From Candidatus Magasanikbacteria bacterium RIFOXYC2_FULL_40_16 (GTDB taxonomy: Bacteria > Patescibacteriota > Patescibacteriia > Magasanikbacterales > UBA922), in the NCBI GenBank assembly GCA_001783185.1, contig MFQY01000053.1, positions 1 to 44,026 of the forward strand: a DNA stretch of 44,026 nucleotides, read 5' to 3'. A program made the translations under genes and the position numbers. The notes below the pieces were generated by a model. It was not told where the DNA came from, did no database searches, and saw nothing but the letters and a program-made list of their open reading frames with translations. Positions 30,800 through 44,026 of the stretch are shown here, piece after piece (position 1 is the stretch's first letter; each line of letters starts with the position of its first letter).

Positions 30800-30840
30800 A
30801 CTTTTTAAATACTCCCTCACCCCGACCAAGTCAGGATTCG

Positions 30841-30917
30841 TGGAGCGGCAGACCGGATTCGAACCGGCGACCTTCTCCTTGGCAAGGAGACGTTCTAGCC
30901 AACTGAACTACTACCGC
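30841..30917 (-). tRNA. tRNA-Gly(GCC), CCA encoded
   Basis: GCGGTAG TA GTTC AGTTGGCTA GAAC G TCTCC TTGCCAA GGAGA AGGTC GCCGG TTCGAAT CCGGT CTGCCGC T CCA. Confidence 0.9.
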
Positions 30918-30970
30918 ATGTTTGATTTTATTGTAATTATTATAACGGATACTTTATTGATATTCTAGCC

Positions 30971-31000
30971 CCAGCCAGAGGCTGGTCCGCCTTTGGCGGA
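30971..31000. repeat. double-hairpin element, copy 3
   Basis: CCAGCCAGAGGCTGGTCCGCCTTTGGCGGA. Confidence 0.85.
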
Positions 31001-31002
31001 AA

Positions 31003-31048
31003 CTGTAAGGGCACCTTACCCCGCCGGACGGCGGGGAACTACTACCGC
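31003..31048 (-). repeat. orphan tRNA-Gly 5' fragment (nt 1-12, GCGGTAGTAGTT) fused to the hairpin module CCCCGCCGTCCGGCGGGG-TAAGGTGCCCTTAC-AGTT
   Basis: The 12 nt at 31037-31048 are identical to the 5' end of the intact tRNA-Gly(GCC) about 120 nt downstream. The module is shared with 39199-39247 and 37812-37845. Confidence 0.8.
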
Positions 31049-31053
31049 ATTAG

Positions 31054-31127
31054 TTGCGAGGCCCGGATTTGAACCGGGGACCTTCTGGTTATGAGCCAGA
31101 CGAGCTGCCAGACTGCTCCACCTCGCT
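31054..31127 (-). tRNA. initiator tRNA-fMet(CAU)
   Basis: AGCGAGG TG GAGC AGTCTGGCA GCTC G TCTGG CTCATAA CCAGA AGGTC CCCGG TTCAAAT CCGGG CCTCGCA A. It has a 1:72 mismatch (A x A) and an A11:U24 pair as in bacterial initiators, and it is close to E. coli tRNA-fMet (recalled from memory). Confidence 0.8.
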
Positions 31128-31251
31128 ATATGTGCATTAATATAACACAAAAAAATAAATATTGCAAGAGTGTGTATTGACAACCCCGAATTTCTTTGAT
31201 TAACTTGGGTGGGTATTTTCATCCGCTCTTTCTAGTTCAAAGGAGGCTGTT

Positions 31252-31512
31252 GTGATTTGGCAAGACATCCTAATAAGCATAGCCAGCGCTATTTCTTGTA
31301 TTTCTCTTATCCCTCAAGTTTACTCCGGCTTTAAAGAAAAATCCGGCCCGATAAAATACTTGACCTCCGTGCCAACTTTCGCCGGCCTATTCGCGATCTC
31401 TTTGGCCATGTGGACATTGTCGTTGTTTTTATCAAGCACTATCGCGGCAATTTCCGGAGTTTTATGGTTTTTGCTGTTTATTCAAAGAGTAATATACAGA
31501 CAAAAATCATGA
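31252..31512 (+). CDS. SemiSWEET / PQ-loop family 3-TM membrane protein (GTG start)
   Basis: 86 aa with three transmembrane segments and a PQ motif in TM1 (SLIPQVYSGF). Shine-Dalgarno AAAGGAGG. Confidence 0.55.
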   Translation: MIWQDILISIASAISCISLIPQVYSGFKEKSGPIKYLTSVPTFAGLFAISLAMWTLSLFLSSTIAAISGVLWFLLFIQRVIYRQKS

Positions 31513-31612
31513 CCTAGACCAAAACAAAAGGGGGGCTACCCAAGCTAAATAAAATATCTTGGGTAAACACAGAAGCAACTCAAATACGGGTTGCTTTTAT
31601 TTTAATTAAATT

Positions 31613-32641
31613 TTACTCTTTCTCCACCCTATTTACCATAAATTCAACCGCCTTATTCATATTTTTAGGGATAACCTTAACATCGGGATATTTCATCTTA
31701 AAAACCCTAAATATCTCATCGGCAAATGCCTGCCCAACTGTCGGGACTTTATCAAAATCCATAATTATCACTTTAAACTTTTCAAGACCGACCAATACCC
31801 TCCGCGCCTGCGATCTGGAAACATGCACCGTCCCGATTGTAAAAAGACGAACCAAAACCTCGGTCTTATCAAAATCCATCTCCCCATCATCTGATTCATA
31901 TTTTTTAAAAACATCTCCCAAATGGCGCTCCGATTTTTCCGATATTACACAGGTGACTTTTGTTCCTTTTTTTACCGGCTTAATTTCTTCCATAAAGACA
32001 TCCTTAATTATATTGTCTATACGCAATCTCCAACCAAAACTATCCAAAATAAATTCATCCACGGCTTTGGAAGTAAAAAATATACCCTCCCCAGAATGAG
32101 CCTTCGGAGCGGTGGTGGTTTTGCCTTTCAATAAATCCTGCATCGCTTCCATCTCCGATTCCAATTTCTTTTTATCTATAACATTATTAAAGACGCCAAC
32201 CCCAAAATCCTCAACTATAAACTTTAAATCTTTTCCATTACTTTGGATATCCACTTCTATATTTTTTGTTTCTGAGTGGTCTATGGCATTATTAAGCATT
32301 TCATCAAAACTGTATTCCAAAATACTGTAAACATTTTCACTCAAGTTTTTTATAAAATAAGATTTTTCCTTTAAATCGCTAAAAACTCTGTGCTCTTCCA
32401 GATTTTTGTTTACAAGCGACGCTTTAACTCTCTGAACAAACTTATCGGTATATTTTGGCAAAAAATAAAAAGAGGAGCGAGTTGAACCGCCTTTAATGAT
32501 TTTCCCCTGTTTTACAAGTCTTTGCAAAACCAAAACTACGGCCTGGCGAGTTATCTTGTTCTTAAGCGCGCGAAGTATATCAGCGGTAGTAAAACTGTCT
32601 TTTTCCGAAGCTATCTTTAAAATTGTTTGCTCAATATTCAT
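31613..32641 (-). CDS. wHTH - GHKL (HATPase_c) ATPase - STAS-like (DUF4325-type) three-domain protein
   Basis: N-terminal winged-helix-like region (TTADILRALKNKITRQAVVLVLQRLVKQGKI). N-box LNNAIDHS, G1 box EDFGVGV and G2 box HSGEGIFF. The C-terminus VSRSQARRVLVGLEKFKVIIMDFDKVPTVGQAFADEIFRVF is STAS/DUF4325-like. The start is set at 32641 because a consensus promoter lies inside the longer ORF. Confidence 0.55.
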   Translation of the reverse strand: MNIEQTILKIASEKDSFTTADILRALKNKITRQAVVLVLQRLVKQGKIIKGGSTRSSFYFLPKYTDKFVQRVKASLVNKNLEEHRVFSDLKEKSYFIKNLSENVYSILEYSFDEMLNNAIDHSETKNIEVDIQSNGKDLKFIVEDFGVGVFNNVIDKKKLESEMEAMQDLLKGKTTTAPKAHSGEGIFFTSKAVDEFILDSFGWRLRIDNIIKDVFMEEIKPVKKGTKVTCVISEKSERHLGDVFKKYESDDGEMDFDKTEVLVRLFTIGTVHVSRSQARRVLVGLEKFKVIIMDFDKVPTVGQAFADEIFRVFKMKYPDVKVIPKNMNKAVEFMVNRVEKE

Positions 32642-32669
32642 AAATATACAGTCAAAAGTAATTAAAACA

Positions 32670-32698
32670 ATTATACCACATTGTAAAGTAATTGTCAA
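32670..32698 (-). promoter_or_regulatory. consensus sigma70 promoter for the GHKL-STAS gene
   Basis: On the minus strand: TTGACA, a 17-nt spacer, then TATAAT with an upstream TGg, about 22 nt before the ATG at 32641. Confidence 0.65.
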
Positions 32699-32732
32699 GT
32701 GGTATTTTGATAATTGTAAAGTAATTGACAAG
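32680..32732. promoter_or_regulatory. two 20-bp direct repeats ATTGTAAAGTAATTG(T/A)CAAG spaced 33 bp apart (putative operator); inverted partial copy at 32806-32816
   Basis: Read directly. Repeat 1 overlaps the -35 box of the promoter above. The repeats lie in the divergent intergenic region. Confidence 0.6.
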
Positions 32733-32838
32733 CAACTCTTAAAGGGCGCTTGTTTATCAAAAAACGAAACCGTGTTAAAGTAAAGGTATCTTTTCACAAT
32801 TTTGTCCTTTACAATTATAAATACGCCGGGAGTAAAAA

Positions 32839-33591
32839 ATGGAAAAATGGGAACTTATTTCTTTAGAAACCGATTATAGTGGCGAAACGGTCGCCGAGTT
32901 CTTGGAAAAAGAAGCCGGTCTGCCGATTAAAAGGCGGATGCAACACAAAAGAAAAGAATACATTGTTAAATTAAAACAAAGAATAATCCGCATTATAAGC
33001 GAAGCGGTCGGCGCGAGCAAAAACAGAAAAATGGTCGTGATGGGAAGCGGGTCTTTCCACCACTACACTTACGGTTTATGCAAACACGCCGACAAAATCA
33101 GCCAAAACTACGGCTATATCCATTTTGACCAACACGACGATTACCAGTACGAAGAAGAATTGGGATACCGAGACAAACAACGGCTAGGCTGTGGCTCATT
33201 CGTTAAAGATATTCTTGAAGACACAAACGCGTCCGCCGCGCTATTCATCGGTTCAGTCCCGCCAAAGCCAATTCTTGTGCCCGGCAAAAGGCATCTACAT
33301 ATCAAAGACAAAGAAATCGCCTCCGGAAACTGGTTTGAGAAACTTCAAAAAAAACTAGCCTGGCTTCCTTTCGAAGTATATCTGTCGTTTGACCTGGATG
33401 TTATGGAGGGAAAAGCCATAACAACCGCGTGGAGTCCGGGTTTTATGACGACAAAAGATTTGCTTAGGGCAATCGCCATAATCAAAAAAAGCAAAAAGAT
33501 TATCGGCGCTGATATCATAGGATACGGCGGAGCCGACAACATCGTCCCCGGGCGAGAACTGTATCAAAAAATAATCAAAGCTCTGTCATAA
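32839..33591 (+). CDS. divergent arginase/ureohydrolase-fold protein
   Basis: Motifs are spaced as in the arginase family: GSGSFHHYT (compare GGDHS), IHFDQHDDY (compare DAHxD) and LSFDLDVMEG (compare SxDxDxxD). The residues are non-canonical. Confidence 0.4.
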   Translation: MEKWELISLETDYSGETVAEFLEKEAGLPIKRRMQHKRKEYIVKLKQRIIRIISEAVGASKNRKMVVMGSGSFHHYTYGLCKHADKISQNYGYIHFDQHDDYQYEEELGYRDKQRLGCGSFVKDILEDTNASAALFIGSVPPKPILVPGKRHLHIKDKEIASGNWFEKLQKKLAWLPFEVYLSFDLDVMEGKAITTAWSPGFMTTKDLLRAIAIIKKSKKIIGADIIGYGGADNIVPGRELYQKIIKALS

Positions 33592-33686
33592 AATAATGAC
33601 GCAAACAAAATTAGAAAAGATAACCGCCTCAAAAAGGCTAAAGCCCAAGCGTCCAAAACGCGCGGGCTTTTAAAATTCACCAAAAA

Positions 33687-34661
33687 ATGGTATTTTACAT
33701 ATATATGACAAGGCTTTTTGCTACTATAAATAATAAATACATCTTGTTTGTATTTTTTTTGTTTTTCTCATTATTTTCAGCCAAACATGCGTCCGCCGTT
33801 ACCGTCAACTCCGGTTTTGTCAGCGGTATTTGGTATTCGCAAACTCCGTTTTTCGCGGAAGATGACATCAGAATCTACACTGCCATACAAAACGAATCCG
33901 GCTTTGATATCACAGGAACAATCCGGTTTTACGACGGCGAAGAAATAATCGGCGAATCGGAATTTTCCTCAATCAGCGGACATCTAATAGAAGAATGGGC
34001 TGATTGGCATGTGACCGAAGGCGAACACCGAATCAAAGTGGAAATAGTCAACCCTGTGAAATCTTCCCCCGGCTCTGATTCGGAACCGATTACATTATTA
34101 TCAAGCTCATCACCAATAGACGCGCGCTACGCGGATATTGATACGGACAAAGACAGAATCGGCAATAAAAAAGACCCTGACGATGATAATGACGGATTGA
34201 CTGATGAAGAAGAGGCTGATTTAGGAACAAACCCATTGATAGCCGACACGGATAATGACGGCACCGGCGACAAACAAGAATTTGAACCGGAAAAAACCGA
34301 CGAGAATAAAGCCGTGGAAATAAAACCAGAAGAAAAAACCGACAGCGCGAAAACAAATGAAGACGAGCAGACAAAAATCGTCAATACTTTAAAAAATATT
34401 TTAAACTCAATTGATAACGGTGTGGAAACCGCGCTGAAAAAAATCATTTTAACTTTGGAAAAAAAATCCAGCAGTCTGGAAGCGGAATTGCAAGATGAAA
34501 AAAATCCGGACAACAAAAAAAGTTTCTTTAAAAACTTTTATTCAGTAATACTTCCTGTCTTCATCCGGATATTTAATAACCGATGGGCGGCCTATGTTTT
34601 GATATTTATAATCTTGGTTATAATTTGGAAAATCTTCCGGTTTTTCAGAAGAAGGCGGTAA
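33687..34661 (+). CDS. secreted/anchored protein with thrombospondin-type-3-like Ca-binding Asp repeats and a C-terminal TM anchor
   Basis: Signal peptide (probable start at 33705, MTRLF..). DTDKDRIGNKKDPDDDNDGLTDEEEADLGTNPLIADTDNDGTGD. C-terminal transmembrane segment followed by RRRR. Confidence 0.55.
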   Translation: MVFYIYMTRLFATINNKYILFVFFLFFSLFSAKHASAVTVNSGFVSGIWYSQTPFFAEDDIRIYTAIQNESGFDITGTIRFYDGEEIIGESEFSSISGHLIEEWADWHVTEGEHRIKVEIVNPVKSSPGSDSEPITLLSSSSPIDARYADIDTDKDRIGNKKDPDDDNDGLTDEEEADLGTNPLIADTDNDGTGDKQEFEPEKTDENKAVEIKPEEKTDSAKTNEDEQTKIVNTLKNILNSIDNGVETALKKIILTLEKKSSSLEAELQDEKNPDNKKSFFKNFYSVILPVFIRIFNNRWAAYVLIFIILVIIWKIFRFFRRRR

Positions 34662-34668
34662 AACAAAA

Positions 34669-34694
34669 ATCCCCCTTGCGTAAGCAAGGGGGAT
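34669..34694. terminator. bidirectional terminator between convergent surface-protein genes
   Basis: ATCCCCCTTGC-GTAA-GCAAGGGGGAT with flanking A-rich and T-rich runs. Confidence 0.75.
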
Positions 34695-34705
34695 TTTATT
34701 ATTTT

Positions 34706-37456
34706 CTATAACGCCCCGCCACTAAGAGGATTAAAGCCATTATTCACTTCCCTGCCATCTAAAAACCCATCATCATCAGAATCATCATCATCCGGATCAG
34801 TTCCATAAAACCCTTCCTGCAAATTGCTCAAACCGTCTCTGTCAAAATCCTGTTCCGTAAAATCAATCGCCAAATCCGTCTGGTATTCATTCACTTTGGC
34901 TCCGCTGACCGTTAACACGGATTCCCACTCAAAACCAAGCGCCAAAAATATTCTCTCACTGGTAATGATTCTCCTTCGGTTATTTGAAATCAAATAAACT
35001 ATCGGACTGTTTTCGCTTTTTATAAGACTCCCCTCTTTGACCGCTTCATCGTTTGACATATACACCAGCGGCAACCCTTCTTCATAATCTTCAATTATCT
35101 CCGGACTCAAAACTAAAATATCGCTCCATCTGTATCCTCTTGATTCAAACGCCTGCCCCGTAGTGAACGGCCTCTTTTTCGCGCTCTCAATCAAATATAC
35201 TGCCGGACTGTCGCTTGATTTTACCACGCTTCCTTCCCGCACATCTTGAGCTGTCGCCACAAAAACCACCGCTTCCCCTTCTTCCAAAGCGGACAAAGAC
35301 GCAATACTGACAATAACAATATCGCTCCACTCATGTCCTGCCCCCAAAAATGCCTGACCGGTCGCGAACGGTCTTTTCTTTCCCTCCTCAATTAAATACA
35401 CGGTGGGATTATCACTGCTCTTGACCACACTGCCCTCAACTATCGCTCCGGCGGATACGCCCAAATCGTCGCCAATTTCATAGCCATCCAATTCTTCTTG
35501 TGAAACATTGATGACATTTTCCCACTTATATCCGTATTTGGCGAAAACATCCAAACTGGAAATATATCTCAACTGGCCGTCCAACAATACATAAGTTTTC
35601 CCGGTAGTGATGGATCTAAGCAAAGAATTATTTGGTCTTGTGACTGCCGGACGAGGGTCGGAAATGGATTCAATCGCGACCGTCTCCAAATTCTTTACCA
35701 AATTGACCGTAGTCAAGAAACCATCTTTTACAACCAAATTAAACTTAGTCGTACTGCCGGCGCCGACCGCGTAAGTTCCTCCCGGCACTCGTATATCCGC
35801 GTAGCCTTTGTCGCCGGTGTTTACAGAAATAAGCTTTGTTCCTAAAATTTCAGTCTTAGCCAAATCATAATTTTGTTTGTATAAAGACGCGGCGACATTT
35901 TTCACCAGTTTGCCTTCGCCATCACGCGCCACCACGCGAACCACGCTCAACGTCAAATTAATTGTAGGCGCTTGTTCATTCACAATTTCTTTATCCCAAA
36001 AATAATAATACTCGGCAGTCGTGCCCTTGACTTTGAAAGCATAAACCGCCGGCGGGAAATAAAACTCGGTCAAACCGAACTCTCTGGTATTTTTCGTCTT
36101 TAAAACTTTTCCGACCGCGTAATTCCCTTCCGCGTCTTTCAATTGTTCCACCAAAGAAATCGGAATATCGCGAAGTAGATTGCCATCAGCATCTTTCAAA
36201 ATAATTTTTAAAGCGCTCAAAACTTTTTCCAAATTCAAGATTCCTCTTTCCGCCAAAACATTACTTTGATAAAGATTTTTTTGCCCGTCAGGGCCGGTCA
36301 ATTCAACCGTGTATGTGCCTGGCGGAATAAAAAACTTCACCACGCCATTGTCGCCGGTATTTCCGGACGCGACCACATCCCCCAATAAAATCTTGCCATC
36401 AATATTTTCAGTCTGTTTATAAATTTTAACGGCGATATTGCTTTGCAGTTGATTATCAAAACCGCGGGCGGTGACGGAAATCGTCGCCAGCCTATAATTC
36501 AAATTATAACTTTGCGTTTCATTGATTGTCTGATCCCACAAATAAATCAGATTAGTTCCGGTGCCGGCAAAAGTCATTACATAAGTGCCATTGGGCAAAT
36601 AAAGGCTTTTCTGTCCGGTCAGGCCGGTCGTGTAAGTCCCCATTTTTGTTCCTAATACCCTGACACCATCAGTATTGGTAACTTGCTGATAGACACTAAA
36701 ACTGTTGTTGGGTAATAAATTACCAGCTCCATCGCGGACAACAATAGATACATTGCTGAGAATATAATCAACCACGGTTTCCCTGCCCGAATTAACCACG
36801 ATATCCTCTCTTTGATAACTCAAACCGACATCAGACGGAACCTTAATCAAATAACGTCCCGGCGCGACAAAAATTTCTTTCTCGCCATAATCTCCGGTGG
36901 TAAAAGTCTTGCTGACCGCGTCGCCAATTATAATATTCCCTTCTCTATCAGAATCTTGTTCATACAATTCAAACTTTTTATTTTTCAAAGAAGTCCCATC
37001 CAAATTCCTTAATATGACTTTTACACTGCTCAAAGTGGAAGTTTCCGTGTATTGATTTCCACAGGCGTAGGTTCTGTCCCAAACAATATATTCACCGACA
37101 CTCGCGTTTGTTTCATAAAGTTTAATCACAAATTTTGCGGCCGCGCCCGTTTCCGGATTATTGTACGCGTCAGGATGAAAAGTGGTGGTACCGATTCCGG
37201 TAGAATCAATCGTGCCGGTTTTTAAAGACTTCCCCAACAATTTATCGCCATCCACATTTTTGTCCTGCAAATATAATCCCCATTTAATATCGCCGACAAG
37301 TTCCCCGCCGGAGTCTCTGGCGACGATATTTAATTCGGTTATTTGTCCGCTGGCGCAAGCCAAGGCTTTTTCCGTCGGGCTGAACAAACAAGCAACCCCC
37401 AACACTATAACAATAAAAGGTACACAAAAATTTCGCAAAAGTCTAACTGACCGCAT
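34706..37456 (-). CDS. large secreted repeat protein (916 aa): ~6 Ig/CarboxypepD_reg-like beta-sandwich repeats, 4 copies of a ~55-aa repeat, and a C-terminal TSP3-like Asp-rich motif
   Basis: Signal peptide. Repeated pattern V.V..RD..G..L.N....LY.Q......G..LG...T...G......P.GTY. Repeated GSVVKSSD.P.VYLIE..KKRPF.TGQAF...G..WSDI. The protein ends DFDRDGLSNLQEGFYGTDPDDDDSDDDGFLDG. Confidence 0.65.
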   Translation of the reverse strand: MRSVRLLRNFCVPFIVIVLGVACLFSPTEKALACASGQITELNIVARDSGGELVGDIKWGLYLQDKNVDGDKLLGKSLKTGTIDSTGIGTTTFHPDAYNNPETGAAAKFVIKLYETNASVGEYIVWDRTYACGNQYTETSTLSSVKVILRNLDGTSLKNKKFELYEQDSDREGNIIIGDAVSKTFTTGDYGEKEIFVAPGRYLIKVPSDVGLSYQREDIVVNSGRETVVDYILSNVSIVVRDGAGNLLPNNSFSVYQQVTNTDGVRVLGTKMGTYTTGLTGQKSLYLPNGTYVMTFAGTGTNLIYLWDQTINETQSYNLNYRLATISVTARGFDNQLQSNIAVKIYKQTENIDGKILLGDVVASGNTGDNGVVKFFIPPGTYTVELTGPDGQKNLYQSNVLAERGILNLEKVLSALKIILKDADGNLLRDIPISLVEQLKDAEGNYAVGKVLKTKNTREFGLTEFYFPPAVYAFKVKGTTAEYYYFWDKEIVNEQAPTINLTLSVVRVVARDGEGKLVKNVAASLYKQNYDLAKTEILGTKLISVNTGDKGYADIRVPGGTYAVGAGSTTKFNLVVKDGFLTTVNLVKNLETVAIESISDPRPAVTRPNNSLLRSITTGKTYVLLDGQLRYISSLDVFAKYGYKWENVINVSQEELDGYEIGDDLGVSAGAIVEGSVVKSSDNPTVYLIEEGKKRPFATGQAFLGAGHEWSDIVIVSIASLSALEEGEAVVFVATAQDVREGSVVKSSDSPAVYLIESAKKRPFTTGQAFESRGYRWSDILVLSPEIIEDYEEGLPLVYMSNDEAVKEGSLIKSENSPIVYLISNNRRRIITSERIFLALGFEWESVLTVSGAKVNEYQTDLAIDFTEQDFDRDGLSNLQEGFYGTDPDDDDSDDDGFLDGREVNNGFNPLSGGAL

Positions 37457-37539
37457 ACATAATATATTAGTTAATTTATGAATTAATTATAGCAAAACGC
37501 CCCCTTTATGTAAATTTACCCCTGGTTTTACGCCCAATA

Positions 37540-37623
37540 TTGACAGAATAAACCCCTTATATTATAATATCCCCAGTCTGTTATTGACAGACTCATGACA
37601 TAGTGTAAAAACTGTGTTATAAT
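37540..37623 (+). promoter_or_regulatory. two tandem sigma70-type promoters with no protein gene downstream
   Basis: P1: TTGACA at 37540-45, 17-nt spacer, TATAAT at 37563-68. P2: ATGACA at 37595-600, 17-nt spacer, TATAAT at 37618-23 preceded by TGt. Confidence 0.6.
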
Positions 37624-37629
37624 AATCAT

Positions 37630-37722
37630 GTATATAAGTATTGCTCTGCCTTGCGCAGGGCCAGCCCACTTATATACTGTATGGCAAAAACAAAAGAATC
37701 CCGACAAAATCGGGGTTTTTTT
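37630..37722 (+). ncRNA. candidate small RNA (~95 nt from P2; ~150 nt from P1)
   Basis: A 10-bp stem, GTATATAAGT (37630-39) with ACTTATATAC (37668-77), encloses a GC-rich loop. The terminator CCCGA-CAAAA-TCGGG plus T7 follows at 37700-37722. The overlapping 99-aa ORF runs through the terminator and repeats, so it is unlikely to be coding. Confidence 0.4.
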
Positions 37723-37811
37723 GTTGATATTATTTCGTCATCCTAAACTTAATAGAAAGGTTCCGTCTTGTCCCCTATCATTGCGAGTGTCCACTTTTCT
37801 CCCCCTATCAG

Positions 37812-37845
37812 GTAAGGGAACATTTATCCCGATTTTACATCGGGA
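37812..37845 (-). repeat. third copy of the hairpin module (TCCCGATGTAAAATCGGGA-TAAATGTTCCCTTAC), downstream of tRNA-Val
   Basis: Same two-hairpin module as at 31003-31036 and 39199-39235, but not preceded by a recognisable tRNA fragment. Confidence 0.7.
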
Positions 37846-37932
37846 GGGAGTCAGAGGGGGTCTTTTTCCATCATCCCGCTTGTCCCGTCACTGGCGGGAA
37901 GCAAAGTCAAGGTGTCTCTTGATATAAAATAG

Positions 37933-38006
37933 TGCTCGCAACTGGATTCGAACCAGTGACCTTTGCAATGTGAATGCAACGCTCTAACCAACTGAGCCAT
38001 GCGAGC
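37933..38006 (-). tRNA. tRNA-Val(CAC)
   Basis: GCTCGCA TG GCTC AGTTGGTTA GAGC G TTGCA TTCACAT TGCAA AGGTC ACTGG TTCGAAT CCAGT TGCGAGC A. CCA is not encoded. Confidence 0.9.
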
Positions 38007-38273
38007 ATTTTAGTAAAACAATCTTACAGCAAAAAAAGTAAAAGTTCAAGTCCTTTTCTCATCAAAAAATACCCTTGCGGGTTTGTTTTTATCCTGTACC
38101 ATTTTGAAGCAGGACTAATCCAAGAACTTTAGCGCCACAATTTGCTATTCCTAAATTTTAGGCAAGTAACCACAATCACAATCCACGACTGCAACATTAT
38201 GGGTTTCCTTTTATACCCTTATTGTAGAATAATAATTAATAACCCCAATTTTACACCTCTCCTAAATTAATAA

Positions 38274-38298
38274 GGCACCTTGATCTGTCAAGGTGCCC
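38274..38298 (-). terminator. intrinsic terminator after the 232-aa orphan gene
   Basis: GGCACCTTGA-TCTG-TCAAGGTGCC; on the minus strand it is followed by TTATTAATTT. Confidence 0.6.
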
Positions 38299-38311
38299 AA
38301 AATAGATACTA

Positions 38312-39010
38312 TTATGCCTTTTCCCCCCAAAGAACGGCATCAATCCTTTTCAAGGATACATCCGAACCATTACCTGTAAACAGGGCTACAATTTCTATCC
38401 ACAATGCTTCAGCATTGGCTTGACCAACCTCCAAGCGCTCAACAATTTCTTTAATGAAATAGTCCTTGGGTATGTATTGACCCTTCATTTGAAGACCATC
38501 CGCGGTAAGACAAGCCACATCTTCTTCATCAGAAAAGATACAACCAAATGTCAAAACCAATTTGGTTATGGCAAGATATGTACGAAGTAACGCCGGAGCA
38601 ATTTCTCCAAGCAACGGACTTGGGGCTATCCTTTCATACGAATTCAAACTACCAATTGATAGGCCATGTTGTACCGCGGGGGCAAGCCCGGCCAACACAC
38701 TTTGCGCGGCGGTCAGAACTTGTCTTTGTTGATTCGCGACTAATACTTGCGACAAACGAAGATCTTCTATGCCCTCTTGGTCCAGTTCGCAAGCAGGGTC
38801 AATTGCATCCTCAATAATTGCCTGAACTTCAATGAAGTTTTTTCTATTTTCTTCCTGCACAAGTGCTTCATCAATTATTTTTTTACAGGCTTCGCAAGTC
38901 GCTACATGAATAGAGAACGACTGTATCTGCAATGTTACTTCATCCTGGATACCTTTATCATCCGGGTTTAAAAAAAGTTCCCTCAATAGATCACAAAATG
39001 TTTTTGCCAT
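38312..39010 (-). CDS. hypothetical protein (232 aa), GC-richer
   Basis: ORF only, starting 39 nt downstream of tRNA-Pro. No family recognised. Confidence 0.5.
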   Translation of the reverse strand: MAKTFCDLLRELFLNPDDKGIQDEVTLQIQSFSIHVATCEACKKIIDEALVQEENRKNFIEVQAIIEDAIDPACELDQEGIEDLRLSQVLVANQQRQVLTAAQSVLAGLAPAVQHGLSIGSLNSYERIAPSPLLGEIAPALLRTYLAITKLVLTFGCIFSDEEDVACLTADGLQMKGQYIPKDYFIKEIVERLEVGQANAEALWIEIVALFTGNGSDVSLKRIDAVLWGEKA

Positions 39011-39048
39011 CGTCTTTTTCCTTTTCTAAGTGGATTTATAACCACACG

Positions 39049-39122
39049 TCGGAGTGAAAGGACTTGAACCTTCGACCCTCTGGTCCCAAACCAGATGCTC
39101 TAGCCAACTGAGCTACACTCCG
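39049..39122 (-). tRNA. tRNA-Pro(UGG)
   Basis: CGGAGTG TA GCTC AGTTGGCTA GAGC A TCTGG TTTGGGA CCAGA GGGTC GAAGG TTCAAGT CCTTT CACTCCG A. Confidence 0.9.
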
Positions 39123-39198
39123 ATATTTTATTGAATTTTATAATACAAATTTTTTAGTTGCGCTTACTTTGATTGTATATTAAAGCGAAGTTGTCCCA

Positions 39199-39247
39199 AC
39201 TGTAAGGGAACACTTACCCCGACCTTGCGTCGGGGAGCTACACTCCG
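39199..39247 (-). repeat. orphan tRNA-Pro 5' fragment (nt 1-12, CGGAGTGTAGCT) fused to the hairpin module CCCCGACGCAAGGTCGGGG-TAAGTGTTCCCTTAC-AGTT
   Basis: The 12 nt at 39236-39247 are identical to the 5' end of the intact tRNA-Pro about 115 nt downstream. Confidence 0.8.
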
Positions 39248-39261
39248 ATATAAAATTTTTG

Positions 39262-39942
39262 TTAAATCTGTTTTTTCAATCCGTCAATCCATCCAATTAA
39301 TTTATAAAAAAGTTTGGTGTTATATACTCTTAAATGGATAGTCCCGTATTTTAATATATTTTTACTTTTCCCCTTGCTCGCTGAACTTAAAGATCTCGAC
39401 ACTTTCATAAATTGATCTTTTTTTATTCCTGTCACTCTTGACCAATACTCTACAGCTTTATTACCAGATAAATTTCTATGTAAAATAACTTGTACTCTCA
39501 TTTTATCTTCTTCAACCTTACAAATCTCTCTAAAAAAACGCATCATCATCATAACCATAGTTGAATCAGAATTTGTAAAATCTACACACTTCCAAATACT
39601 TCCTTCCGCGCCTTTTTTATATCCCTCTCCCCAATATAATGAAATCCCCACAAGAAAAAGGTCATTTTCTCTTATTTTTTTTACCTCTTTAGCGGCCTTT
39701 TCACGTATTTCTTTTGCCCTCTCCTTGGCAAAAACTGTTTGTTCTTTGTTTCTACGAATTAATGCTTTCACACTTTTCTCATATACCCTATTTTCTATTC
39801 TAGTTTTCGCTTTTTTTGACAAAACTATATCTCTCAACCAATAAGAAAGTGTGCTTTTGGGGATTTTTAACGATTTACTTATTTCATTATAACTTTTCCC
39901 CAACTTGCGAAGTTTTATCGCATTTATTTTTTCTACCTTCAT
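39262..39942 (-). CDS. HTH plus single-motif LAGLIDADG-like homing-endonuclease-like protein (free-standing)
   Basis: N-terminal HTH (KSYNEISKSLKIPKSTLSYWL). DLFLVGISLYWGEGYK resembles the LAGLIDADG (L..G....GEG) motif. The size and the basic C-terminus fit the family. This is a motif-level call only. Confidence 0.45.
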   Translation of the reverse strand: MKVEKINAIKLRKLGKSYNEISKSLKIPKSTLSYWLRDIVLSKKAKTRIENRVYEKSVKALIRRNKEQTVFAKERAKEIREKAAKEVKKIRENDLFLVGISLYWGEGYKKGAEGSIWKCVDFTNSDSTMVMMMMRFFREICKVEEDKMRVQVILHRNLSGNKAVEYWSRVTGIKKDQFMKVSRSLSSASKGKSKNILKYGTIHLRVYNTKLFYKLIGWIDGLKKQI

Positions 39943-40004
39943 ATAAATTGAACTTACGGTAATTAGACATACAAATTATACCGTAAGTTCAAAATATATA
40001 CAAG

Positions 40005-40306
40005 TGCCGAGGGCGAGGATTGAACTCGCGACACGTGGATTTTCCAATTTATTATCTTGTGTTTCCACAAGGATCGGACTATATCATCACCCCGACTCAG
40101 TCGGGGGTTGGGCGCTAATGCGAGATTATTGTTGGGGCTCACTCGCTAGTCTCTACACCTTCCCCGATACTTTTACCCATCGGGGCTTGGCTCGGGATTA
40201 TCCGCTAGTCGACGGACTTCCCCGAATTCACCCAATTTTCTCATCTTAATTTACATTAAGAGGGACCGAAATTCAGTCCACTGCTCTACCACTGAGCTAC
40301 CTCGGC
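40005..40306 (-). tRNA. tRNA-Phe(GAA) interrupted by a group I intron (exons 40275-40306 and 40005-40044)
   Basis: Exon 1: GCCGAGG TA GCTC AGTGGTA GAGC A GTGGA CT. Exon 2: GAAAA TCCAC GTGTC GCGAG TTCAATC CTCGC CCTCGGC A. Joined, they give a canonical 72-nt tRNA-Phe. Confidence 0.85.
40045..40274 (-). ncRNA. group I intron (IC3-like), 230 nt, inserted between U33 and G34
   Basis: The 5' exon ends in U, which pairs as U-G in a P1 helix (GGACU with GGUCC at intron nt 8-12). The intron ends in G. The core strings AAUCCCGAGCCAAGCC.. and ..GGAAGGUGUAGAGACUAGCGAGUGAGCCCC.. and ..AUAGUCC.. resemble the cyanobacterial tRNA-Leu intron core (recalled from memory). Confidence 0.8.
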
Positions 40307-40340
40307 TTTTTCGTGATAGACAGACTCACAATAAAGTGAG

Positions 40341-40416
40341 TGGTGGACCCTACCGGATTTGAACCGGTCACCTCTTCCATGCCATGGAAGCATTCTACCA
40401 AATGAACTAAGGGCCC
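40341..40416 (-). tRNA. tRNA-Ala(GGC), CCA encoded
   Basis: GGGCCCT TA GTTC ATTTGGTA GAAT G CTTCC ATGGCAT GGAAG AGGTG ACCGG TTCAAAT CCGGT AGGGTCC A CCA, with G3:U70. Confidence 0.9.
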
Positions 40417-40419
40417 GTC

Positions 40420-40683
40420 TTATTTTAATTTAATAATTTTATTTTCAATAATATCTTCTATAATATCTCGTCTTTTTAATTTTTTAATCTTATATTCAAT
40501 GCATCTAGCCTGTTTTATATCATTATAAATTTGAAAAAATTTTAATTCCCATTTACCCTTATTTTTTGTCGCGATATTTTTACCGGAATTATGTTCAGCC
40601 ATTCTTCGATCTAAATCAATCGTTGACCCTATATAATACTTGCCCGCTAATTCGCTATATATAATATACAGATAACCTACCAT
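40420..40683 (-). CDS. small GIY-YIG nuclease-family protein (87 aa)
   Basis: MVGYLYIIYSELAGKYYIGSTIDLDRRMAEHNSG...; paralogue of the N-terminal domain of 2349-3137. Its stop codon lies 3 nt from the tRNA-Ala 5' end. The start is taken at 40683; the longer ORF reads into the pseudo-tRNA. Confidence 0.75.
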   Translation of the reverse strand: MVGYLYIIYSELAGKYYIGSTIDLDRRMAEHNSGKNIATKNKGKWELKFFQIYNDIKQARCIEYKIKKLKRRDIIEDIIENKIIKLK

Positions 40684-40694
40684 AATATTATTTA

Positions 40695-40784
40695 CCAGCC
40701 ACCTTCCCGATGTGGCATCGGGACGTTCTACCAAATGCTTTTAGTCCCGATGAGCCAAAGGCGACATCGGGAAACTAAGGGCCC
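40695..40784 (-). pseudogene. decayed tRNA-Ala(GGC)-like copy carrying two TCCCGATG..CATCGGGA hairpins, truncated in the T-loop by the GIY-YIG gene
   Basis: Minus strand: GGGCCCTTAGTT-[TCCCGATGTCGCCTTTGGCTCATCGGGACTAAAAG]-CATTTGGTAGAAC-G-[TCCCGATGCCACATCGGGA]-AGGTGGCTGGTAAAT.. The intact gene reads GGGCCCTTAGTTCATTTGGTAGAATG[anticodon arm]AGGTGACCGGTTCAAAT. Confidence 0.7.
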
Positions 40785-41003
40785 GTTGATATGCCTCAAC
40801 ATAATACTAAAAATTTCACAAAAAGTCAAGGCGCGACATCATATTGATAACAATTATATCACACGCGGTTTTAAACAAACAAATCAAAACCACCCGCTCA
40901 AGAATCTGTGTGGGCGGTTTGTGTCTTGCCAGCTACACCGGCATCATCACCCGTCGCAATTTTTTTGAGCATATAATTTTTAAAGACTGAGTTAATATCT
41001 TTT

Positions 41004-41023
41004 CAGAAAGGTGACGGGGTTGA
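41004..41023. repeat. solo right-end repeat of the MITE-like family (CAGAAAGGTGACGGGGTTGA)
   Basis: Matches the right terminal repeats at 5904-5923 and 30692-30711. No left end was recognised. Confidence 0.6.
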
Positions 41024-41070
41024 CAAAAATGACTTTTTGGTATAACATTTTTAAACAAAAGGAGGAAAAA

Positions 41071-41481
41071 ATGACTTTCGAAGAATTGGTCCAAAAAGTG
41101 GGAATTGGGTTGGCAACCGTAATCCAAAGCGAGAGAAGCGGGCTGACCGAAGAAGTCCTCGCCCGTCTTGATAACTTCCAAAAGTGGGAAGAGGTGTTTC
41201 TTGAATCTCTACCACATAGCCAGCTGGAAATAACAGCTCATAAAAAAATGGGAGAATTCATAAGTTCAGACGAAGACCTCAGAAAATATCAGGCATACCA
41301 CCCATGGATCACCATCTATGGCCATCCAAGCCACAAAGAGCTACGCTCCCCACCCGAGGAAACGCCCCTGTTCACACTTGAACAATGGAGCTGGATCTGG
41401 CGCATGAACCGATACGCTCATTCAAATCCGGAATTGCGTTATTTGGCAATGAGGCAGATGATTGCCTTGAGCGAAACGTAG
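41071..41481 (+). CDS. hypothetical protein (136 aa), GC-richer
   Basis: The Shine-Dalgarno AAAGGAGGAAAAA-ATG at 41071 favours this start over 41011. No family recognised. Confidence 0.5.
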   Translation: MTFEELVQKVGIGLATVIQSERSGLTEEVLARLDNFQKWEEVFLESLPHSQLEITAHKKMGEFISSDEDLRKYQAYHPWITIYGHPSHKELRSPPEETPLFTLEQWSWIWRMNRYAHSNPELRYLAMRQMIALSET

Positions 41482-41508
41482 CCAAAACCCAAACAAGAAA
41501 GTCTCCCG

Positions 41509-41536
41509 CCCCCGACTAAGTCGGGGGCTTTGTTTT
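41509..41536 (+). terminator. intrinsic terminator
   Basis: CCCCCGAC-TAA-GTCGGGGG followed by CTTTGTTTT. Confidence 0.75.
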
Positions 41537-41554
41537 CCCTCAACTCAACCGTGA

Positions 41555-41583
41555 TTGACAAAATAAAAAAAATCCGCTATATT
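41555..41583 (+). promoter_or_regulatory. sigma70-type promoter for tig
   Basis: TTGACA, a 17-nt spacer, then TATATT. Confidence 0.55.
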
Positions 41584-41662
41584 AAAGCAACTCAAAACTA
41601 AGCAACTAAAATCTAAAATCTAAAATCTCTAATCTATAATCTATAATCTAACAATTAACAAT

Positions 41663-42949
41663 ATGTCCCACTCATTAAAAAAACTGGAAAAATCGGAAAT
41701 TGAACTGACATTAACAGTCGCCCCGGCCGATTATGAAAAACATCTGCAAAAAGCCGCGCAAAGACTGTCCGAACGCACTACCATCAAAGGCTTCCGCAAA
41801 GGCAAAGTTCCTTTTGATGTTGTTAAAAAAGAAGTCGGCGAAATGGCCATCCTGCAAGAAGCGTTGGAAGATGTAATCCGCGAGACTTTTTATAACGCGG
41901 TAACGGATGAAAAACTGGAGACCATCGGTATGCCAAAAATTGATATAGAAAAAATCGCCCCGGGCAATGATATTATCTACAAAGCAACCGTTGGGCTGAT
42001 GCCGAAAGTTGAGCTCGCGAACTTATCCAAAATTGAAGTAAAAAAAGAAATCAAAAAAGTGGACGATGCTAAAATCACGGAAACGCTTGACGCTATTCGT
42101 GGGATTAATGCTACGGAAACACCAAAAGACGGCCCAGCTGTTGGGACAGACAAACTGGTGATTGATATGGATATGAAACTTGATAATGTGCCGATTGAGG
42201 GCGGACAAGCCAAAGACTACCAGGTTTATTTAAGCGAGGACCATTATGTCCGCGGATTTAATAAAGAGGTTGAAGGTCTTAAAAAAGGCGAAGAAAAAGA
42301 ATTTACGCTGGATTTTCCGGACACTCATTACCAAAAAATGCTGGCCGGGAAAAAAGTTCAGTTTAAAATTAAAGTAAAAGAAGTGTTGGAAAGACACTTG
42401 CCGGAATTGACGGATGAGATGGCAAAAAAACTCGGGCAAGACACTGTAGAAAAATTAAAAGAGACCATAATAAAAAATTTGGAAGCCGAAGCCGAACAAA
42501 AGGCGGAGCAAAAAACCGAAATAGAAATGTTGGAAAAAATAGTTGCGGACAGCAAGTTTGAACCGATCCCGACAGTAATTATTGATAGTGAAAGACAGAA
42601 GATGTTCTACGAATTAAAAAGCAATTTGGAAAGACATGGCGTAGAAATTGACCAATACTTGGCTGACATCAAAAAAACGGAAAAAGAATTATATGAAGAA
42701 TTCAAAACCCAGGCGGAAAAAAGAGCCAAAGCAGCGCTAGTGTCGCGCCAGGTGGCAATAGAACAAAATCTTAAAGTCAGCGAAGAAGAATTGAATCAGG
42801 AAATTGAAAATATGCGCGAAATTTACAAAAATGAAAAAGAAACGCTGGAAAGATTAAATGATGCCGGCGTGAGAGAAAGTATCGCCACCGCCATTCAGAA
42901 CAAGAAAGTGGTAAAATGGCTTAAAGAAAAAATTGTAAAAAACGCTTAA
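41663..42949 (+). CDS. tig: trigger factor
   Basis: The N-terminal ribosome-binding domain has GFRKGKVP, followed by an FKBP-like middle domain and a helical C-terminal domain. Confidence 0.9.
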   Translation: MSHSLKKLEKSEIELTLTVAPADYEKHLQKAAQRLSERTTIKGFRKGKVPFDVVKKEVGEMAILQEALEDVIRETFYNAVTDEKLETIGMPKIDIEKIAPGNDIIYKATVGLMPKVELANLSKIEVKKEIKKVDDAKITETLDAIRGINATETPKDGPAVGTDKLVIDMDMKLDNVPIEGGQAKDYQVYLSEDHYVRGFNKEVEGLKKGEEKEFTLDFPDTHYQKMLAGKKVQFKIKVKEVLERHLPELTDEMAKKLGQDTVEKLKETIIKNLEAEAEQKAEQKTEIEMLEKIVADSKFEPIPTVIIDSERQKMFYELKSNLERHGVEIDQYLADIKKTEKELYEEFKTQAEKRAKAALVSRQVAIEQNLKVSEEELNQEIENMREIYKNEKETLERLNDAGVRESIATAIQNKKVVKWLKEKIVKNA

Positions 42950-43109
42950 AAACCGACGACTACTCAAATTTTAGACCAAGACAGCTTCTGTTGTTTCATG
43001 TTTCATGCCTCATGACTTATGCTCAACGGGGGTCTTTACATTTTTGTCAAAATATGATAGAGTGTCTTGAGGTAAATAAAACCTTTCACAACTTTCACAA
43101 GGGGGAGTT

Positions 43110-43379
43110 ATGGACAAATACACAAAGGAATTGATTTCTCGTTGTTGTGGGGAAGTGGTGGGACTCAAGTTCTACTTGATTCCTATGATCAAAGAAATGT
43201 CGCTTAGCGACGAGCAGATCCAGGACTTCTTCCGCCTCACCGGAGCCCGCAAGGTGGAGCTCTGGATCAAGATCTCCGAGTTCATCTCGGAGAAGAAGAT
43301 TCTAGACAGGAAAGAGGGGGCAATGGAGTTCATCAAGAACACCCTGAAGTTCTCCAAGAACCCAGTGGAGGAAAAGTAG
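43110..43379 (+). CDS. small hypothetical protein (89 aa)
   Basis: Shine-Dalgarno GGGGGAG and a plausible upstream promoter (TTTACA, 17-nt spacer, TAGAGT). GC-richer. Shares an EVVGL motif with the next small ORF. Confidence 0.45.
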   Translation: MDKYTKELISRCCGEVVGLKFYLIPMIKEMSLSDEQIQDFFRLTGARKVELWIKISEFISEKKILDRKEGAMEFIKNTLKFSKNPVEEK

Positions 43380-43456
43380 TTCCTCCTTACACCCGGCGCT
43401 AACGCGCCATCCAAGCCGTATGGTTCGCCCAGCGGCTTTTTTTAGTTTTTAAAGAG

Positions 43457-43486
43457 TTGACAAAACACCCTTTTTGGAGTTAAAAT
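43457..43486 (+). promoter_or_regulatory. sigma70-type promoter for the 80-aa ORF
   Basis: TTGACA at 43457-62, an 18-nt spacer and TAAAAT at 43481-86. Confidence 0.5.
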
Positions 43487-43521
43487 ATAATGTCCGTAAA
43501 AATTAACAATGGACAAAGGAG

Positions 43522-43764
43522 GTGGGTATGACCGCGGAAGAACTGACAAGTATTGACTGCGCTCTCGCGTCAGAGGACCCGGTTACCCAGGAGGTGGTGG
43601 GGCTTATTTACAGATATTGCGAAGACAAGAAACTAAATGCTTGTGCCTGCAAGAAAATTTATGAAAGGCTAACGCCGGATGATTTCAACCATCTTAAAAA
43701 GATGGTAAACGAAAAAGAAACAGTCAGCCACATCTGGCAACAGTTTGACGCAATCCTGAAATAA
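43522..43764 (+). CDS. small hypothetical protein (80 aa)
   Basis: Shine-Dalgarno AAAGGAGGTGGGT-ATG. The hairpin GAGCCCCG-CTAATAA-CGGGGCTC follows at 43779-43801. Confidence 0.45.
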   Translation: MGMTAEELTSIDCALASEDPVTQEVVGLIYRYCEDKKLNACACKKIYERLTPDDFNHLKKMVNEKETVSHIWQQFDAILK

Positions 43765-44026
43765 CCCACTCCTCCACGGAGCCCCGCTAATAACGGGGCT
43801 CTTACTAATTAATCAAAAACCCCCAGCGTAGCCATCCCGTCATCCCGACCCGCCAGCTGGCGGGGAGGGATCCCCCTATCATTCTCGCGAAAACGAAAAT
43901 CCAGAAGAATAATTTTCTCTCCTCCACTTTTTTTATAAAAAGTGGAGCAAAAAATCGAGCCGTTAGTTCGCTCAGAGCCAGTTGCGGCTCACCGTCGTAT
44001 TTTGTCCTTGACTTAACCTTGACGGG

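Follow-up and report, generated by a model that had tools for sequence, protein, structure and literature searches.

We describe here a 44,026-nucleotide stretch of DNA from Candidatus Magasanikbacteria bacterium RIFOXYC2_FULL_40_16 (contig MFQY01000053.1, positions 1 to 44,026, assembly GCA_001783185.1; hereafter the window), in which a gene for an 87-amino-acid (aa) GIY-YIG nuclease lies between a broken and an intact copy of the tRNA-Ala(GGC) gene. The locus is most probably a small selfish cassette lodged inside a partial tandem duplication of the tRNA gene. To judge from the sequences compared, the cassette would in all likelihood consist of an open reading frame (ORF) only, a gene of about 260 bp for a single-domain, Ssn-like nuclease. 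An earlier note on this DNA had read the order pseudo-tRNA, GIY-YIG gene, tRNA as the scar of a nuclease-driven insertion and repair event. The idea of a mobile nuclease in tRNA genes is retained, but not that of a one-off event, since the arrangement recurs throughout the family.

Results

Organization of the tRNA-Ala(GGC) locus

The locus is read on the minus strand and its parts are listed in Table 1. A promoter-like site ends about 17 nucleotides (nt) 5' of the pseudo-tRNA-Ala(GGC), and no terminator-like site was found between it and the intact tRNA. It is likely the original promoter of the tRNA gene, which would now serve the pseudo-copy, the ORF and the tRNA. The pseudo-copy starts as the tRNA does, is interrupted by a first hairpin, resumes after a short linker and then carries a second hairpin instead of the anticodon arm, followed by variable-loop nucleotides, the nuclease gene and the intact tRNA. 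The palindrome of the first hairpin is followed by a single C, and its loop resembles a degenerate TCCGCC..GGCGGA hairpin, which may reflect a nested insertion.

The significance of the pseudo-copy was assessed by a gap-tolerant alignment to the tRNA, with 1000 shuffles as null. The alignment gave 24/24 identities, a score reached by none of the 1000 shuffles, and among the six minus-strand tRNAs called by ARAGORN in the window the cognate tRNA-Ala(GGC) was the best match. The organization given in the earlier note, with a pseudo-copy, two hairpins, the 87-aa ORF, 3 nt and the intact tRNA, was thus recovered as described. That note also extended the similarity up to the T-loop. A weak T-stem remnant is indeed present (GCTGGT versus ACCGGT, 4/6), but the AT-rich stretch that follows is the leader of the cassette, which is shared with the closest relative, L076 (loci of relatives are designated by L and a number). 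The L076 protein is 72% identical and the locus is syntenic, including an intron-bearing tRNA-Phe; at the matching 12/13 position L076 has TCAGCCAGAGGCTGA + TCCGCCTTTGGCGGA. In the GGC unit, two pseudo-copies that stand apart in L076 appear to have been fused. L076, L050 and L148 have the same substitution, and the segment of the second hairpin is 89–91% identical to theirs over 34–38 nt. The GGC locus is identical across six Rifle-type assemblies, with no strain variation there.

Scoring the pseudo-copies with a tRNA covariance model had been proposed in the earlier note, and the outcome, taken literally, speaks against them: the Rfam tRNA model gave no match at E≤10 on the Gly, Pro and Ala(GGC) pseudo-copies (scanned over 30000–44026), and none on the copy at the tRNA-Ala(UGC) locus (15683–15764), which was covered by the gathering-threshold tRNA scan only. 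For the GGC copy this is expected because the gene is truncated and bears two inserts. Covariance scoring is uninformative for copies of this kind and makes a poor test, so the comparison with shuffles was used instead.

The nuclease family is linked to tRNA genes

Homologues of the 87-aa protein were taken from species-representative genomes and metagenomes, which yielded 81 non-redundant loci, mostly from bacteria of the candidate phyla radiation (CPR), where the family is widespread; it also occurs in Pedobacter and Dehalococcoidia. Among the 77 loci that could be judged, 45 had a tRNA on the same strand starting at most 40 nt from the ORF stop. In 8 others the tRNA lay 41–140 nt downstream with a second pseudo-copy in between, and in 10 it was immediately upstream of the ORF. 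The 45 adjacent loci span 19 anticodon types, and 33 of them have, upstream of the ORF, a copy of the 5' end of the cognate tRNA (at least 9 nt) together with NNCCGA(C/T) hairpins. The association of homologues with tRNA genes and duplicated 5' ends, on which the earlier note had staked its interpretation, is therefore present. The downstream tRNAs score 57–73 bits; an upstream copy scored as a tRNA by covariance model in L053 only (31.6 bits). Since 34 tRNAs were counted in about 680 kb of Magasanikbacteria-type loci, no more than about 5% of genes could adjoin a tRNA in this way. As a control we used 80 canonical Ssn-type loci, real genes retrieved with an approximate probe sequence as a stand-in for SsnA of N. 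meningitidis; no tRNA was found within 700 nt in these loci (129 kb).

The ORF ends inside the tRNA in 26 loci, which requires that the two share one mRNA. For 20 of these ORFs the stop codon is the TAG formed by the conserved U8-A9-G10 of the tRNA (nt 8–10), and they have none of their own (stop offset −10 or −11, e.g. L045, L094, L113 and L125), so that a cut by RNase P at +1 would give an mRNA without a stop codon.

On the annotation side, ARAGORN calls hairpin-substituted pseudo-tRNAs as tRNA-Leu(TAA) or tRNA-Arg(TCT) (L078, 657–742; L102, 389–457; L136, 403–478). In these miscalls, a pitfall for the annotation of CPR genomes, the inserted hairpin (such as TCCCGATTTCTAATCGGGA) is mistaken for an anticodon arm.

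Hairpins interrupt cognate copies at several positions

Two forms of the unit recur. Form A consists of the tRNA from nt 1 to nt 10–16, one to four hairpins, a cognate D-loop remnant and the ATG; form B of tRNA nt 1–26, a hairpin in the place of the anticodon arm, variable-loop nucleotides and the ATG. The GGC unit of the window combines both. The break at position 12/13, which the earlier note took as recurrent, is not a fixed site, hairpins being found at 10/11, 12/13, 13/14, 14/15, 15/16 and 16/17. They also occupy the position of the anticodon arm (window, L050, L053, L076, L085) or of the T arm (Pedobacter), or lie within the T loop (L050). Where the ORF is downstream of the tRNA, it is followed by a 3' pseudo-copy, and it is in this copy that hairpins replace the anticodon arm in L050 and L053 and the T arm in Pedobacter, or enter the T loop in L050. 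As far as these alignments tell, hairpins replace or enter any tRNA arm.

The remnants that follow the hairpins are cognate even for unusual D loops (CATTTGG, CAACTGG, GCATAATGG, CTAGTGG), so the hairpins lie within a continuous cognate copy; variable-loop remnants are sometimes cognate too. The duplication usually starts exactly at +1, 19 of 34 loci sharing no leader nucleotide, and in most ORF-bearing loci the 5' 10–16 nt of the tRNA are perfectly cognate. Between the junctions the ORF is essentially alone in being conserved, with variable filler of 0–25 nt on the left and 0–17 nt on the right.

The hairpins form a repeat family

A census of the 200 nt upstream of 83 ORFs gave 192 GC-rich hairpins, of which 113 are built on a CCGAC or CCGAT stem. 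Changes in the outer base pairs of these stems are complementary (TCCCGAC, CCCCGAC, AGCCGAC, CTCCGAC and others), and some hairpins are nested in the loops of others. The variant follows the protein clade: CCGAC outnumbers CCGAT 90 to 9 in the large clade 6, and CCGAT outnumbers CCGAC 23 to 2 in clade 3. Judged by these sequences, the hairpins are a conserved repeat family with NNCCGAC / NNCCGAT stems that accompanies the nuclease family across phyla, and not incidental decay. The window has 10 hairpins of the CCCGA..TCGGG type where 0.66 are expected; two of these resemble ordinary terminators, and another two fall within a group I intron. No known RNA family or ribozyme was matched inside the cassettes, and a degenerate group I intron was rejected as their origin. 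The canonical Ssn-type genes are flanked by ATTCCCGCG..CGCGGGAAT hairpins, which correspond to the dRS3/NTS core.

In a betaproteobacterial locus (L162, 1–700), about eight 87-nt tandem units stand 5' of a canonical Ssn-type gene, each with three hairpins (ATTCCGGG.., GGAATGACGGGG.., ATTCCGGCG..).

The nuclease is a bare GIY-YIG domain

The Pfam GIY-YIG domain covers residues 3–72 of the 87-aa protein and no further domain was found. Four residues, Y6, Y17, H31 and E63, do not vary in the family alignment (A1), and conservation of R27 is 90% or more. Comparison of this alignment with that of the NTS-flanked Ssn-type family by hhalign gave a probability of 98.8% (E=7.8e-17, 74 columns). Weak matches to 'group I intron endonuclease' (TIGR01453) and to PHROG homing-endonuclease families are confined to the N-terminal ~38 residues, in stretches of about 35 aa. 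All relatives of the protein in viral contigs are weak, and carriage of the cassette by phages was rejected on this ground. Among the 15 window ORFs scanned, those nearest the locus included, none has a HUH domain, and there is no tyrosine or serine recombinase gene.

The cassette has moved between tRNA genes

The distribution of the family among Magasanikbacteria is sporadic, with no other copy in 43 Magasanikbacteria-type loci. Relatives of the trigger factor assign the window to Candidatus Magasanikbacteria (CPR/Patescibacteria). The tRNA loci of relatives were located through the synteny of the trigger-factor gene; they were few, but provided empty and occupied sites for tRNA-Arg, tRNA-Cys and tRNA-Gly. 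At tRNA-Arg(CCT), L001 is empty and its gene starts exactly where a 71-nt unit begins in L002. This unit comprises a 12-nt 5' copy, two hairpins and a D-loop remnant, within a promoter and leader otherwise nearly identical to those of L001; a decayed version with decayed hairpins is found in L005. At tRNA-Gly(GCC), L018 is empty (tRNA-Met, 5 nt, tRNA-Gly), and in the window a 131-nt unit is interposed at this point. A unit at tRNA-Cys is present in L004 and L019 and not in about ten other loci. The comparison of related genomes suggested in the earlier note thus shows both states of the site. In L007 the 5' copy equals the tRNA allele of another lineage, and L153 also has a foreign-allele pseudo-copy.

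Proteins at least 60% identical were found at different tRNA identities in 119 pairs and at the same identity in 17. Each of these genes has a 5' copy cognate to its own tRNA, so the cassette has jumped between tRNA genes many times, with a cognate duplication on each occasion. Rearranged units were also recorded. In L085 two units of pseudo-copy and ORF stand in tandem ahead of a single tRNA, and L050 has three pseudo-copies in tandem. In L088 and L076 a pseudo-copy whose ORF is internally deleted separates an intact ORF from the tRNA, and the ORFs of L152 and L057 are frameshifted. Comparison of these loci shows what appear to be tandem units arising by unequal recombination between the tRNA repeats, and hairpin-bearing pseudo-tRNA leaders arising by deletion of the ORF.

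ORF-less units in the window

Three units of the window have no ORF (Table 1). The Gly(GCC) and Pro copies are exact 12-mers located 131 and 125 nt upstream (0/1000 shuffles each), in agreement with the fragments reported in the earlier note. The unit at tRNA-Ala(UGC) has the layout of the GGC locus in a decayed state, as that note had seen, but its derivation from tRNA-Ala(UGC) did not hold, since only 9 of nt 1–12 match, 114 of 1000 shuffles are as good and the copy is not specifically cognate. The hairpin CCCCGACGCAAGGTCGGGG of the Pro unit is 100% identical over 19–20 nt to the first hairpin of five ORF-bearing cassettes from other phyla and other tRNAs (L047, L109, L084, L113 and L104), and the pair TCCGCCAAAGGCGGA + CCAGCCTCTGGCTGG of the Gly unit is also present in the Arg unit of L002. 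A search for ORF remnants in the Pro, Gly and Ala(UGC) spacers returned significant matches to hairpins only. From the shared hairpin we infer that the three units may represent the end stage of the cassette series.

A module found in the Pro and Gly units, TAAGTGTTCCCTTA(C) with variants TAAGGTGCCCTTA and TAAATGTTCCCTTAC, occurs three times right after a CCCCG/TCCCG hairpin (39203–39216, 31006–31018 and 37812–37826, minus strand). Among 1.1 Mb of fetched loci it is confined to the genome of the window.

Table 1. Positions in the window of the tRNA-Ala(GGC) locus and of the three ORF-less units.
Feature	Position	Strand	Remarks
Promoter-like site TTGACT-17-TATTAT	40801–40829	-	10/12 matches; top minus-strand site in 39900–41100
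Pseudo-tRNA-Ala(GGC) nt 1–12, GGGCCCTTAGTT	40773–40784	-	Same sequence as intact gene
Hairpin 1, TCCCGATG-TCGCCTTTGGCT-CATCGGGA	40745–40772	-	Inserted after tRNA nt 12
Linker, 7 nt	40738–40744	-	
Pseudo-tRNA nt 13–26, CATTTGGTAGAACG	40724–40737	-	nt 13–24 match tRNA 12/12
Hairpin 2, TCCCGATGCCACATCGGGA	40705–40723	-	Substitutes anticodon arm; CG just before
Variable-loop AGGTG	40700–40704	-	
Weak T-stem remnant GCTGGT and AT-rich 5' leader of ORF	40684–40699	-	
87-aa single-domain GIY-YIG nuclease gene (Ssn-like)	40420–40683	-	Stop codon included; Pfam PF01541, E=1.1e-16
Start and stop codons of the ORF	ATG at 40683; TAA 40420–40422	-	
Spacer GAC, 3 nt	40417–40419	-	Separates ORF stop from tRNA
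Intact tRNA-Ala(GGC)	40341–40416	-	ARAGORN; Rfam tRNA 58.7 bits
Unit 5' of tRNA-Ala(UGC) (15581–15654)	15683–15764	-	GGGCCACTAGCT, hairpin 15734–15752, CAGCATTTGGGAGCA, hairpin 15688–15704, GGGTG
Unit 5' of tRNA-Pro(UGG) (39048–39122)	39190–39247	-	Exact nt 1–12, hairpin CCCCGACGCAAGGTCGGGG, module TAAGTGTTCCCTTA, D-loop remnant CAGTTGGGACAAC
Unit 5' of tRNA-Gly(GCC) (30841–30917)	30963–31048	-	Exact nt 1–12, hairpin CCCCGCCGTCCGGCGGGG, TAAGGTGCCCTTA, CAGTT, hairpins TCCGCCAAAGGCGGA + CCAGCCTCTGGCTGG, GGCTAGAA

Other features of the window and of related loci

The tRNA-Phe(GAA) next to the GGC locus (40005–40306, minus strand) has a group I intron in its anticodon loop (Rfam 93 bits, 40055–40283) and is not called by ARAGORN; the same intron-bearing tRNA-Phe follows the cassette in L076. 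Two stems of the intron, CCCCGACTGAGTCGGGG and CCCCGATGGG..TATCGGGG, resemble the cassette hairpins. L084 has a tRNA-Asn with an anticodon-loop insert of about 200 nt, as read by eye, and L056 a near-threshold group I match (361–627, minus strand, 48.2 bits for a gathering threshold of 50).

The stretch 37700–37930 (minus strand), 3' of tRNA-Val and 5' of a 916-aa ORF, is rich in GC hairpins and apparently structured. It contains TTCCCGCCAGTGACGGGA, TCCCGATGTAAAATCGGGA and a CCCCCTC..GAGGGGG pairing, with a terminator-like hairpin at its end, and gave no Rfam match. AT-rich short tandem repeats are found at 15511–15550 (TAGAATA-type), between tRNA-Ala(UGC) and ychF and directly upstream of ychF, and at 41600–41655 (AATCTAA/AATCTAT-type), upstream of the trigger-factor gene. 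The window also encodes another GIY-YIG domain of this small type, which shares 45% identity with the L053 protein over 66 aa. It lies at 2349–3137 (minus strand) among consecutive pilin-like genes, as part of an in-frame fusion with a protein that bears a prepilin N-terminal methylation motif.

Discussion

Taken together, these observations argue for a nuclease gene that probably lives as a small selfish cassette within partially duplicated tRNA genes. Several of them nevertheless weigh against this reading, or against the kinship with Ssn enzymes that goes with it. In 14 of the 77 loci no tRNA was present within the limits used, and the second GIY-YIG domain of the window (2349–3137) has no adjoining tRNA or hairpin. 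The hairpins lie inside the cognate pseudo-copy, between nt 10–16 and the D-loop remnant, so that the hairpins and the ORF are not one simple contiguous insert, and a few duplications take in 3–6 leader nt. None of the window hairpins matches the published SRM pattern HGTCWYN(0-2)YYVSBRHN(0-5)WNVSBRGN(0-2)RNCYNB, whose matches occur at 0.01 per kb in CPR-type loci versus 1.66 per kb in the canonical NTS-flanked control loci. Compared pairwise by BLASTP, the 87-aa family and canonical Ssn-type proteins show weak similarity (E=2e-6 over 27 aa), and UPF0213 proteins from the PDB score about as well as the latter.

The closest parallel is nonetheless found in the Ssn nucleases (family cd10448), single-domain GIY-YIG enzymes (94 aa in N. 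meningitidis) which bind the NTS/SRM hairpin repeat flanking their own gene and cut only single-stranded DNA (ssDNA), a few nt upstream of the hairpin, with Y6, Y17 and E64 essential in SsnA (Chenal et al. 2025, PMC11893778). They can also cleave a hairpin assembled from two strands. In Neisseria they have been proposed to restrict transforming ssDNA; their role elsewhere is unknown, the hairpin-gene-hairpin layout having been likened to an insertion sequence and an analogy drawn with REP/RAYT and IS200/IS605 (PMC11893778). The same paper, which set homology to SsnA at tblastn E<1e-10 over more than 75% of the query, never mentions tRNA. The family described here shares with Ssn a size of about 90 aa, a single GIY-YIG domain with no DNA-binding domain, the catalytic residues (Y6, Y17 and E63 for Y6, Y17 and E64 in SsnA) and a gene flanked by GC-rich hairpin repeats of about 17–28 nt with a TCCCG core, whose variant changes with the protein. 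It differs in being nested in partial tRNA duplications, with hairpins that replace tRNA arms, whereas the 80 canonical-type loci had no tRNA within 700 nt; its NNCCGAC / NNCCGAT stems fall outside the SRM pattern and its protein similarity, taken pairwise, is remote. The element is best described, on the sequences at hand, as a tRNA-nested variant of the Ssn/hairpin-repeat kind, Ssn-like in design and not assigned to Ssn in the strict sense.

A broader resemblance exists to REP/BIME-RAYT and IS200/IS605 systems, in which short GC-rich palindromes likewise proliferate around a small nuclease gene; here too hairpins nest in one another and action on ssDNA is probable. The difference is that the enzyme is a GIY-YIG nuclease, with no HUH/Y1 transposase, and that the targets are tRNA genes with cognate duplication. 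Since GIY-YIG enzymes form no covalent intermediate, the nuclease cannot itself carry out strand transfer.

Mobile GIY-YIG ORFs of mitochondria (Allomyces atp6, fungal mitogenomes) offer another parallel, the ORF standing beside an essential gene whose displaced fragment persists as a pseudogene, with mobile GC hairpins in a compact AT-rich genome. These cases differ from ours by their protein-coding hosts, the duplication of a 3' fragment, their location in eukaryotic organelles and the lack of any known tRNA-arm replacement.

Among alternatives, the one that survives best, although we consider it unlikely, is a classical free-standing homing endonuclease of the I-TevI or SegB type, which would cut double-stranded, cassette-free tRNA genes in the D-arm and leave the pseudo-copy and hairpins as scars of double-strand-break repair. 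SegB is a GIY-YIG endonuclease of phages T4 and T6 located in tRNA clusters, which recognizes the tRNA T-psi-C motif (PMC2330249); a statistical link between SegB and tRNAs exists in phages, where the enzyme brings about segmental amplification of tRNA and segB (PMC13096335). The GIY-YIG domain of our protein and its weak matches to intron-endonuclease and homing families fit this reading, as do the sporadic occurrence in Magasanikbacteria and the empty sites of L001 and L018 beside the occupied ones of L002 and the window. In both systems a GIY-YIG gene is found among tRNA genes of many isotypes, conserved tRNA sequence is exploited as a target, and tRNA and nuclease units amplify in tandem, with SegB by recombination of the 5' region of a tRNA with the 3' region of the nuclease gene. 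SegB is however a multi-domain, phage-borne enzyme that cuts double-stranded DNA at a 27-bp site, with no cognate hairpins and no systematic 5' pseudo-copy. The 87-aa protein has the catalytic domain only, and its resemblance to phage endonuclease families is at the level of N-terminal motifs. The intact tRNA beside the gene keeps the putative D-arm target. The hairpins, moreover, range from 10/11 to 16/17 and into the anticodon and T arms, and are conserved and clade-specific, which random repair filler would not be. Finally, homing by double-strand-break repair makes no duplication.

Less probable still is the view that the pseudo-tRNA/hairpin leader is no by-product but a selected cis-acting element, for RNase P processing, for transcript stability or as an obligatory recognition or guide site that sends the nuclease to the cognate tRNA gene. 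It would account for the perfectly cognate 5' ends, for the complementary changes in the stems, for the constant position of the unit inside the tRNA transcription unit and for the fold of the window's pseudo-tRNA/hairpin region, which is more stable than that of shuffles (z = −3.5); cleavage by Ssn of a two-strand hairpin (PMC11893778) also speaks for it. Yet such leaders are present or absent between close relatives that are otherwise identical in this region (L001 and L002), decay in L005 and at the UGC locus of the window, carry foreign alleles in L007 and L153 and match no known RNA family, and the perfect identity is explicable by recent origin or gene conversion. Mere coincidence, in which decaying tandem tRNAs or att remnants of integrase islands met a GIY-YIG gene and terminator-like hairpins by chance, can practically be dismissed: integrative elements commonly leave partial tRNA copies behind (PMC9897764) and some CCCGA hairpins of the window are plain terminators, but there is no integrase, the duplicates are 5' parts at 70–370 nt from the gene, the same architecture is found at 19 anticodon types in dozens of lineages, and the shuffle tests, the tRNA-free control loci, the family-wide linkage counts and the movement between tRNA identities all contradict it.

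Specific models of insertion were also considered and rejected. An att-site island of an integrase would require a recombinase and a duplicated 3' part across a kb-scale island, not a short-range 5' part. A simple 12-nt target-site duplication does not explain why D-loop and sometimes variable-loop remnants after the hairpins are cognate as well. Campbell-type integration, or a double crossover, from a cassette at another tRNA was set aside on logical grounds, for it would make a chimeric acceptor stem in the 'intact' copy. A boundary defined by RNase P through an RNA intermediate is weakened by the leader nucleotides included in some duplications and by the lack of any reverse transcriptase seen.

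How a selfish cassette could persist in such a place may be pictured as follows. The promoter-proximal tRNA copy, truncated and with its D and anticodon arms broken or replaced by hairpin repeats, would be dead, and the intact downstream copy would supply the tRNA of the cell. The tRNA promoter would transcribe pseudo-copy, ORF and tRNA as one RNA from which RNase P frees the tRNA; where the stop codon lies at tRNA nt 8–10, this processing would leave a stop-less mRNA and could throttle expression of the nuclease. As the cassette stands between a promoter and an essential tRNA, imprecise deletion would be penalized, and precise recombination of the direct tRNA repeats would be the only harmless removal, restoring an empty site; the same recombination may also produce tandem gain. 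Insertion of hairpins shortens the uninterrupted direct repeat and may thereby stabilize the cassette.

As to the trigger, the nuclease presumably binds hairpins in ssDNA and nicks nearby, as characterized Ssn enzymes do. tRNA genes in single-stranded form would fold into hairpins, and structure-directed nicks followed by repair synthesis could give both the duplication and the exchange of arms for hairpins. One route to the observed products would be staggered nicking close to +1 and past the D or the anticodon arm, with subsequent fill-in. The GC skew is a weak hint that these genes have their sense strand as the lagging-strand template.

A more far-reaching proposal, which we regard as possible though rather doubtful, is that the 87-aa nucleases and their hairpins constitute a previously unrecognized kind of ssDNA-acting mobile element, directed at the cloverleaf-forming strand of any tRNA gene. 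A minimal ORF-only cassette would then nick at points defined by structure, close to +1 and at the junction where the D or the anticodon arm ends. Its insertion would bring a long cognate 'target duplication', so that an intact tRNA remains, hairpin repeats subsequently swapping in for arms. In its boldest version, the tRNA fragment beside the hairpin would be a DNA guide steering cleavage to the cognate tRNA gene.

We found no description of such a tRNA-nested nuclease and hairpin arrangement in the literature, and residence inside essential genes in this manner seems not to have been described for a mobile element. Relatives of Ssn-type nucleases would here be seen in a natural setting as mobile, decaying and amplifying elements, with a host site, the tRNA gene, that is precisely defined and junctions that can be read. 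The cultured Pedobacter species with related units make experiments feasible. The arrangement would also account for odd 'tRNAs' of CPR genomes and for a class of tRNA fragments from the 5' end, and it suggests how, in a streamlined genome, a selfish gene may settle within the transcription unit of a single-copy essential gene and yet spare that gene.

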